The notes below the pieces were generated by a model that saw only the letters and a program-made list of their open reading frames with translations, searched no databases and was not told the DNA's origin. A stretch of DNA of 60,458 bases, taken from the IMG/VR virus record IMGVR_UViG_3300045988_036809; one strand, written 5' to 3'. Both the position numbers and the translations under genes were made by a program. Origin of the DNA: a virus. This document shows, in pieces, positions 27,645 through 27,727 of this stretch; positions within the stretch are counted from its first letter, which is position 1, and each line of letters begins with the position of its first letter.

Positions 27645-27727
27645 CGAAGCACCCGGAATCGAACCGGGATTTACGGGAAAACGTGGGGTGTGTAAAACCG
27701 TATGATCTGCCATTGATCTATGCTTCG
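27645..27727 (-). ncRNA. 83-nt tRNA-like RNA with 21-nt anticodon loop
   Basis: Acceptor CGAAGCA/TGCTTCG. D arm GATC-AATGGCA-GATC. Stem TACGG/CCGTA closes TTTTACACACCCCACGTTTTC. T arm CCCGG-TTCGATT-CCGGG. 3-nt variable region. Confidence 0.6.

Follow-up and report, generated by a model that had tools for sequence, protein, structure and literature searches.

Natural tRNA-like genes with replaced anticodon loops in a phage tRNA island: candidate non-decoding RNAs on a tRNA scaffold

What is encoded by a gene that has the acceptor, D and T arms of a tRNA and no usable anticodon loop? The question is raised by two 83-nt elements, A and B, in the IMG/VR virus record IMGVR_UViG_3300045988_036809, a stretch of 60,458 nt that was analysed whole and is referred to here as the window. 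It represents an uncultivated phage of ~60 kb, with Lachnospiraceae as probable hosts; one relative was binned with an uncultured Lachnospiraceae genome. All of its genes are encoded by the minus strand. GenBank phages include no close relative, and many relatives are present in IMG/VR and in human-gut assemblies. A preliminary description had presented A and B as twin tRNA-like genes with intact helices and enlarged anticodon loops, and sequence and fold confirm the minus-strand positions, the length of both elements and a cloverleaf with an enlarged loop (Table 1). Both possess the acceptor stem of 7 bp, the D arm and the T arm (GTTCRANYC) that mark a canonical decoding tRNA. Neither has a usable anticodon loop: that of A measures 21 or 15 nt and that of B 21–25 nt, no conserved U33-NNN-R37 register is present, and, as had been anticipated, no standard fold with a 7-nt loop exists for either. 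On the evidence of sequence comparison, A and B are probably genes for small tRNA-shaped RNAs that do not decode and that carry other loops on a tRNA scaffold.

The firmer of the two cases is B, which combines a 7-bp acceptor stem with a D stem of 3–4 bp and a T arm GGTGG-TTCGAAT-CCACC. A variable region of 3 nt had been ascribed to both elements, which holds for A (AAT) and not for B, where it comprises 4 nt (GGAT). The GGC/GCC stem of B closes 25 nt; if G.A and U-A pairs are counted, the stem extends to 5 bp and the loop measures 21 nt. Rfam returned no match to B at E ≤ 5, the family is absent from Rfam 15, and ARAGORN detects the element solely with intron search, as ‘Ile(gat) i(32,14)’. 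In related loci, tRNA-like bodies were located with a strict pattern scanner, and scans with the B-loop pattern recovered 45 viral and 29 gut-metagenome contigs (about 70). The same loop is displayed on three tRNA bodies, B, B' and B'', the second of which had no homologue among GenBank phages, and positions 26–48 of B, between the D and T stems, are nearly invariant in all three.

The covariation of B was assessed on an alignment of 11 distinct sequences with 22 pairs, giving 242 pair cells, against 500 shuffles. Every cell was occupied by a standard pair (242/242) and 13 of the 22 pairs had changed on both sides, a result reached by none of the 500 shuffles. The double changes comprised all seven acceptor pairs, two of the five in the T stem, one of the three in the D stem and three of the four palindrome positions discussed below. 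When the 3' partners were slid by 1–3 columns, no more than 34–49% of cells paired. Because of this covariation across homologues, B is more than a chance fold, and the sequence comparisons make it a real, well-supported new RNA family; the earlier argument that the helices are kept rather than decaying is thus strongly borne out for B, and for A the evidence is weak but consistent with it. A covariance model of B, run on 1.4 Mb of related loci, gave scores above 94 bits for family members alone, the next matches being tRNA-Ile(UAU) genes at no more than 37 bits. Since nothing else scored above 37 bits, B is a distinct family, and since tRNA-Ile(UAU) genes are the next-best matches, it may have been derived from a tRNA-Ile. 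As to the earlier suggestion that the elements are modules of a larger RNA, the B'' body occurs by itself, flanked by small ORFs, and this speaks for an autonomous B at least.

Within its loop, B carries an 8-nt tract, GTGCGCAC, that is a perfect palindrome. Homologues carry GAGCGCTC, GTGTACAC or GGACGTCC at this place, and the tract is self-complementary in all four versions; one further homologue has GTGTGCAC, with a central mismatch that would form a U.G pair in RNA. Across the four mirror positions, complementarity is preserved in 100% of cases. Because the half-sites abut, pairing of one with the other inside a single B molecule is impossible; the symmetry must therefore serve pairing between two molecules, and the tract suggests a loop-loop dimerisation of B. 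Antisense targets of the B loop were also sought within the phage, where matches of only 8–10 nt were found, at the rate expected by chance.

A has an acceptor of 7 bp (CGAAGCA/TGCTTCG), a D stem of 4 bp (GATC/GATC), an anticodon stem of 5 bp (TACGG/CCGTA) and a T arm CCCGG-TTCGATT-CCGGG, and this very cloverleaf is its fold of lowest free energy (z = −2.9). With the Rfam tRNA model RF00005, A reaches 47.8 bits at E = 4e-8, above the gathering score of 29, and 17 nt of the loop are passed over as inserted sequence. By default, ARAGORN reports the element as an 86-nt ‘tRNA-Val(tac)’, a call that we reject: the alternative fold behind it contains A.C and C.C mismatches as well as a spurious long variable arm, and it is impossible in relatives with a 15-nt loop. 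The loop is mostly 21 nt long and measures 15 nt in other copies (CTTTACACACCCCAG, ATTTTCACACCCCAG), its core CACACCCC being fixed throughout while the flanks vary by indels; indels beside an invariant core would not be tolerable for an anticodon. Among ten distinct versions of A, 99.5% of stem cells are paired and the stem changes keep pairing, as where a C-G of the T stem passes through U.G to U-A, one version (L011) having a single stem mismatch. Scans by T arm and acceptor stem, by D arm and by cargo placed A in the clade of the window alone, and three further matches of the cargo scan were set aside as chance. A is a plausible new family, less secure than B.

Directly 5' of A on the minus strand, a hairpin (27728–27770) consists of the stem TGCGCGTC/GGATGCGCA and a C-rich loop, TCTCCCCAAGAA. 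In the relatives L081 and L043 its stem has another sequence with the pairing preserved, and the loop motif CCCCAAGA is retained. The A loop also resembles, in its portion UUUUACACACCCCACGUU, the universal decoding-centre strand of 16S rRNA around positions 1390–1406, CUUGUACACACCGCCCGUC, at 14 of 18 positions, which may be coincidence. The 15-nt loop agrees with CUUGUACACACCGCCCGUC save for two absent G and one mismatch, and by our estimate a match of this kind somewhere in the rRNAs would arise by chance in ~6% of cases.

The C-rich core of A resembles an anti-Shine-Dalgarno sequence. Together with two further bases, as TACACACCCC (27685–27694), it is exactly complementary to GGGGTGTGTA in the ribosome-binding site of the Hin/Gin-type invertase gene 900 nt upstream. 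For the conserved 15-nt form of the loop, the invertase site is the best among 82 ribosome-binding sites of the phage (−19.7 kcal/mol; second-best site, −16.2 kcal/mol). Every clade member has both A and the invertase gene, and both are missing from 60 of 61 sister-clade loci. The 10-nt match was rejected as a statistically proven target, as chance matches are equally long. Pairing of A with the invertase Shine-Dalgarno region is the best available lead to what A may do, and a weak one.

Further members of the island show that bodies and cargos vary separately. Element C has a 4-bp T stem, scores 36.5 bits with the Rfam tRNA model and carries in its anticodon arm a loop of 5 nt, or one of 7 nt that is ‘Ile(tat)-like’ and lacks U33. 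Its anticodon stem covaries in relatives (TTCGC/GCGAT, TTCAC/GTGGC) with loops of 5 to 9 nt, likewise without U33, and in L081 the stem is fully swapped (TTCC/GGGA) around a 9-nt loop. Element D consists of a tRNA-Leu-like 5' part, a T arm and an acceptor stem. In relatives, this body holds at least six unrelated structured inserts of 62, 76, 91, 106–107, 150 and 200 nt, whose helices covary, for example TTGCCG/CGGCAA against TTGCTG/CAGCAA. Element F joins the acceptor sequence of B to an extended anticodon arm with a 12-nt loop. One cargo (B) in diverging bodies and one body (D) with different cargos are as expected for a scaffold whose anticodon arm serves as a slot. A further element, E, likewise has an aberrant anticodon arm, and canonical tRNAs (Gln, Ser, Tyr, Glu, Ile and others) are found beside these elements.

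Two observations on these elements stand apart. The 150-nt insert of D holds GGTGCAGACTAACTAACGG, by eye reminiscent of the P7 region of group I introns, and no group I match was found in Rfam for the large D inserts. Element E, which occupies the B slot in L043 (3478–3561) and is also present in L010, L013 and L081, combines an anticodon loop of 8 nt, CTGCGGTA, with a long variable arm, and ARAGORN assigns it the four-base anticodon gcgg; from loop length and anticodon call, it looks like a quadruplet-decoding or frameshift-suppressor tRNA.

In the window, elements A to D belong to one non-coding island of 1.2 kb between the invertase gene and an HNH endonuclease gene (Table 1). Read along the minus strand, the order is invertase gene, tRNA-Gln, A, C, D, B and an int-alpA RNA motif, which begins 5 nt past the 3' end of B. 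The 189-nt spacer between tRNA-Gln and A is structured (z = −3.7), and 194 nt separate A from C. In relatives, the int-alpA RNA (L043, 3565–3633; L081, 6513–6581) follows B, E or tRNA-Tyr and always precedes the next ORF. A stretch after tRNA-Gln (~27823–27875) looks int-alpA-like by eye, with an outer stem ACCCAC/GTGGGT, a UAG, two hairpins and a U run, and has no Rfam match. A sigma-70-like promoter (TTGCAA, 17 nt, TG-n-TATAAT) precedes the invertase gene, which points to probable co-transcription of the island with that gene. Over the −35 region of this promoter lie four to five tandem 10-nt repeats (TGCAAAGCAT-like, 28640–28689), which may be an operator or an iteron array. Close relatives are 92–98% identical over the Gln-A-C part and encode additional canonical tRNA-Ser(GCT) and tRNA-Tyr(GTA), the slot of B being filled by B, tRNA-Tyr or the odd element E. 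In a sister clade (terminase identity 80–82%), the island again opens with tRNA-Gln and contains changing canonical sets (Glu, Ile(UAU), Tyr, Ser, Phe, Trp, Met, Asn) with aberrant tRNA-likes interspersed. Given these changing gene sets among relatives and in the sister clade, the locus is a hypervariable tRNA island, with non-canonical genes intermingled among canonical ones.

Table 1. Features of the tRNA island and its borders in the window, with the three bodies that carry the B loop
Feature	Position	Strand	Remarks
Invertase Shine-Dalgarno region AAGGGGTGTGTAtttATG, candidate target of A	28595..28604	−	Complementary to A loop; true start ATG 28591-28589
Hin/Gin-type DNA invertase gene	27998-28591	−	Upstream border of island
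Canonical tRNA-Gln(UUG)	27917..27989	−	First island gene; ARAGORN; Rfam tRNA model, 67 bits
tRNA-like RNA A, 83 nt	27645..27727	−	Minimum-free-energy fold; Rfam tRNA model; in every clade relative
A cargo loop TTTTACACACCCCACGTTTTC, 21 nt	27677..27697	−	Closed by TACGG/CCGTA
A invariant loop core CACACCCC	27685-27692	−	Flanks vary by indels
tRNA-like C	27379..27450	−	Rfam tRNA model, 36.5 bits; 4-bp T stem
tRNA-Leu-like body D	27133..27290	−	~107-nt structured insert in place of anticodon arm
tRNA-like RNA B, 83 nt	26905..26987	−	Family in three tRNA bodies; covariation
B conserved cargo block U-GGC-(8-nt palindrome)-RGAAAACAACRAUGARA-GCC-GGAU	26929..26964	−	Alignment of three bodies
B self-complementary tract GTGCGCAC	26953..26960	−	8-nt perfect palindrome in loop
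int-alpA RNA motif	26831..26899	−	Rfam RF02996, 46 bits against gathering score 35.8
HNH endonuclease gene	26030-26809	−	Other border of island; terminase further downstream
Body B			Acceptor TGTAGCA/TGCTACA, T stem GGTGG/CCACC
Body B'			Acceptor CGGAACG/CGTTCCG, T stem GAAGG/CCTTC; inside sister-type tRNA islands
Body B''			Acceptor GCGCGTG/CACGCGC, T stem GCGGG/CCCGC; alone between small ORFs, third contig kind

Several observations weigh against reading A and B as non-decoding RNAs with functional loops. With one double change only, a value reached by 117 of 500 shuffles, the covariation of A is not significant. A is moreover confined to a single clade, within which this part of the island is 92–98% identical, and on these grounds it may be a young pseudogene. 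That both elements are tRNA pseudogenes, perhaps paralogues of tRNA-Ile(UAU) whose loops were wrecked by small insertions too recently for decay to have followed, would also fit the fast turnover of phage tRNA islands and the stem mismatch in one variant of A (L011). Such an origin is untenable for B, with its three diverged bodies, fully compensated stems and invariant loop; for A it has to accommodate an invariant core despite indels in the flanks and stem changes that preserve pairing, and we regard it as unlikely overall. Cofolding energies lend no weight to dimerisation, since B is indistinguishable from an ordinary tRNA in this respect and tRNA-Gln gains similarly, and its palindrome, a perfect dyad, could be the site of a dimeric protein on DNA. 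The A core and the invertase site are both invariant across relatives and therefore do not covary, a second 10-nt match of the A loop exists elsewhere in the genome, and a region of this size (2.1 kb) should contain perfect 10-nt inverted repeats by chance. A DNA-level account would make the B palindrome an operator or recombination site and the A core one arm of a 10-bp inverted repeat (27685–27694/28595–28604) that brackets the invertase gene and marks an invertible segment. Yet in ~50 relatives the arms have the same orientation and a spacing of 864–873 nt, with no inverted arrangement; the repeat spans 8–10 bp against ~26 bp in known invertase sites, and such repeats arise by chance; the U.G-compatible GTGTGCAC of one B variant suits pairing in RNA better; and the sites coincide precisely with the loops of RNA folds that covary. 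We consider this account very unlikely.

Two further explanations take the tRNA character of A and B at face value. The suggestion that they are precursors with very short introns, which an unknown cutting-and-joining activity of phage or host would remove to yield decoding tRNAs, draws on the models that ARAGORN can be made to produce by intron search, namely Ile(GAU) for B, Ile(AAU) for B' and Lys(UUU) for one variant of A. The models do exist for both elements, but they are inconsistent between variants: the identities forced on A are Val, Lys or Gly, the intron positions are 32, 34, 35, 38 and 40, and the products retain C33 or require an insertion point between 33 and 34, which is not known as a splice position. 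Whichever segment is excised, the 7-nt loop that remains does not show conserved U33 and a purine at position 37. In addition, indels of A fall inside the would-be anticodon, and the ‘intron’ of B is invariant while its ‘exons’ vary. Group I introns of bacterial tRNAs are inserted in the anticodon loop, measure ~200 nt or more and possess a group I core, whereas the inserts of A and B amount to 8–18 nt and no match to Rfam Intron_gpI was obtained in the window or its relatives, even at E ≤ 1–5. Introns of the archaeal and eukaryal type are marked by a bulge-helix-bulge at 37/38, and by inspection no such motif (4-bp helix, 3-nt bulges) can be drawn in these loops; an incomplete scan of ~30 ORFs revealed no RNA ligase or splicing endonuclease. 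We therefore give short introns hardly any credence. A decoy function, in which host enzymes such as anticodon nucleases, HEPN or toxin RNases or modification enzymes would be lured by the tRNA body and then trapped or diverted by the enlarged loop, is compatible with the structural conclusions, with the setting beside canonical tRNAs in a phage tRNA island, with the maintained body and with an A loop that is U-rich and contains ACA. A decoy for an anticodon nuclease should nonetheless copy the 7-nt loop of its target, which neither loop does, and the idea predicts neither a covarying palindrome nor a B loop that is conserved above the level of the body. Defence nucleases are not known from this host. 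The partner that had been proposed, an RlmN/Cfr-like enzyme encoded by the phage, is not supported either: the ORF concerned (54402–55370) scores 42 bits with TIGR00048 against a cutoff of 290, only the radical-SAM core (residues 47–134) matches, Pfam Radical_SAM gives 23 bits, under the cutoff, and the best match is phrog_24834, of unknown function. We consider a decoy role improbable. The term ‘tRNA mimic’, offered at the outset, remains a fair description of A and B, and ‘twin’ does not apply in the sense of paralogous copies, given that their cargo loops are unrelated and that generic tRNA features and length are all they share.

On the reading favoured here, in which A and B do not decode, the acceptor, T and D arms would have been retained as a scaffold and the anticodon loop swapped for a functional cargo. 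The island would be transcribed as a precursor, and the tRNA bodies would direct RNase P cleavage, 3'-end processing, CCA addition and stability, by analogy with tRNAs and engineered tRNA scaffolds; the genes for A, B and the adjacent tRNA-Gln lack an encoded CCA. The released RNAs of ~83 nt may then act through their loops. Two molecules of B would pair loop to loop, anticodon-end to anticodon-end, or B would pair with a dyad-symmetric partner. For A, the C-rich core CACACCCC might recognise G-rich ribosome-binding sites by base pairing, beginning with the site of the invertase gene, which is probably transcribed together with A, a step that we put forward with particular caution. More broadly, and as a tentative proposal only, gut-phage tRNA islands could be a platform for expression and processing in which the anticodon arm is a cargo slot, filled differently in A, B, C, F and D, so that stable, tRNA-matured cargo RNAs are produced, among them kissing homodimers of B and, in A, an anti-Shine-Dalgarno regulator of the invertase.

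The nearest natural precedent is provided by RNAC and RNAD of phage T4, small non-tRNA RNAs from the phage tRNA region whose biological role is unknown (PMC3014915). Like A and B, they are small RNAs of a phage tRNA cluster and are presumably matured with the tRNAs; they differ in that they are not described as cloverleaves with enlarged anticodon loops (PMC3014915), and host and phage lineage are others, the comparison being one of descriptions. Engineered ‘tRNA scaffold’ RNAs carry a chosen RNA where the anticodon arm would be, so that it is expressed stably in bacteria (method papers, e.g. PMC3753655). The common design is an intact set of acceptor, T and D arms with a cargo in place of the anticodon stem-loop, and the D body is the closest natural parallel; the laboratory versions are artificial, whereas the elements described here are natural, conserved and covarying, their processing and stability being argued by analogy. 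Kissing elements, such as the dimerisation initiation site of HIV-1 and the pRNA of phi29, share with B a self-complementary or mutually complementary loop tract maintained by covariation and differ in molecular context, and dimerisation of B is a prediction.

Larger RNAs with tRNA-like parts are more distant. tmRNA and the bacterial Y-RNA-like YrlA combine a tRNA-like module with a functional non-tRNA domain, which takes the place of the anticodon arm; both are much larger than A or B. A and B lack the G3:U70 pair of tmRNA (at 3:70, A has A-U, B has U-A, and B' and B'' have G-C), its tag reading frame and its pseudoknots; ARAGORN found no tmRNA, and Rfam gave only an 18-nt chance match elsewhere. 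The ends of YrlA lie in the opposite helix, whereas those of A and B form the acceptor stem. Phage tRNAs with substitutions in the anticodon loop that escape host anticodon nucleases likewise occur in tRNA islands, but their loop remains 7 nt long and decoding is retained; A and B resemble them in being phage-encoded, in their island setting and in their altered loops, and differ in loops of 15–25 nt without a usable anticodon.

Other features of the window were recorded in passing. Three matches to type II hammerhead ribozymes lie within 410 nt on the plus strand (32239–32308, 32474–32541 and 32580–32647), the first with 62 bits (gathering score 37) and the other two below threshold with 27–29 bits, in an ORF-poor region and on the strand opposite all genes. 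A C5 cytosine DNA methylase gene (46351–48304, minus strand) is broken into two ORFs, and the 187 nt that separate them include two copies of GGGGGGTGT; the conserved SPTLSTMQGG motif follows in a different frame just past the second G run, which suggests a frameshift at the G6 tract through phase variation, programmed slippage or assembly error. A PAPS-reductase-like PP-loop ATPase (50144–51347, minus strand) is likewise encoded by two ORFs, which overlap by 23 nt and cover profile positions 3–72 and 56–172.

As tRNA-like non-coding RNAs in phage tRNA clusters, A and B are new members of a kind that is already known, and no description of such elements was found in literature searches. The tRNA genes of phages are usually viewed as codon-usage helpers or as countermeasures to tRNA-cleaving defences. 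Several genes of this island, listed by tRNA finders as ‘tRNA’, ‘tRNA with intron’ or ‘tRNA-???’, instead form a separate class, in which tRNA bodies display conserved non-anticodon loops or entire inserted domains, and automatic tRNA counts in gut phage genomes are inflated by such elements. B would offer a small and readily testable RNA whose function seems tied to a covarying, self-complementary loop. If these RNAs are expressed, phages would be exploiting the tRNA maturation machinery of the host to produce stable regulatory or structural RNAs, and the platform, if it proves true, would be a natural counterpart of the laboratory tRNA scaffold.

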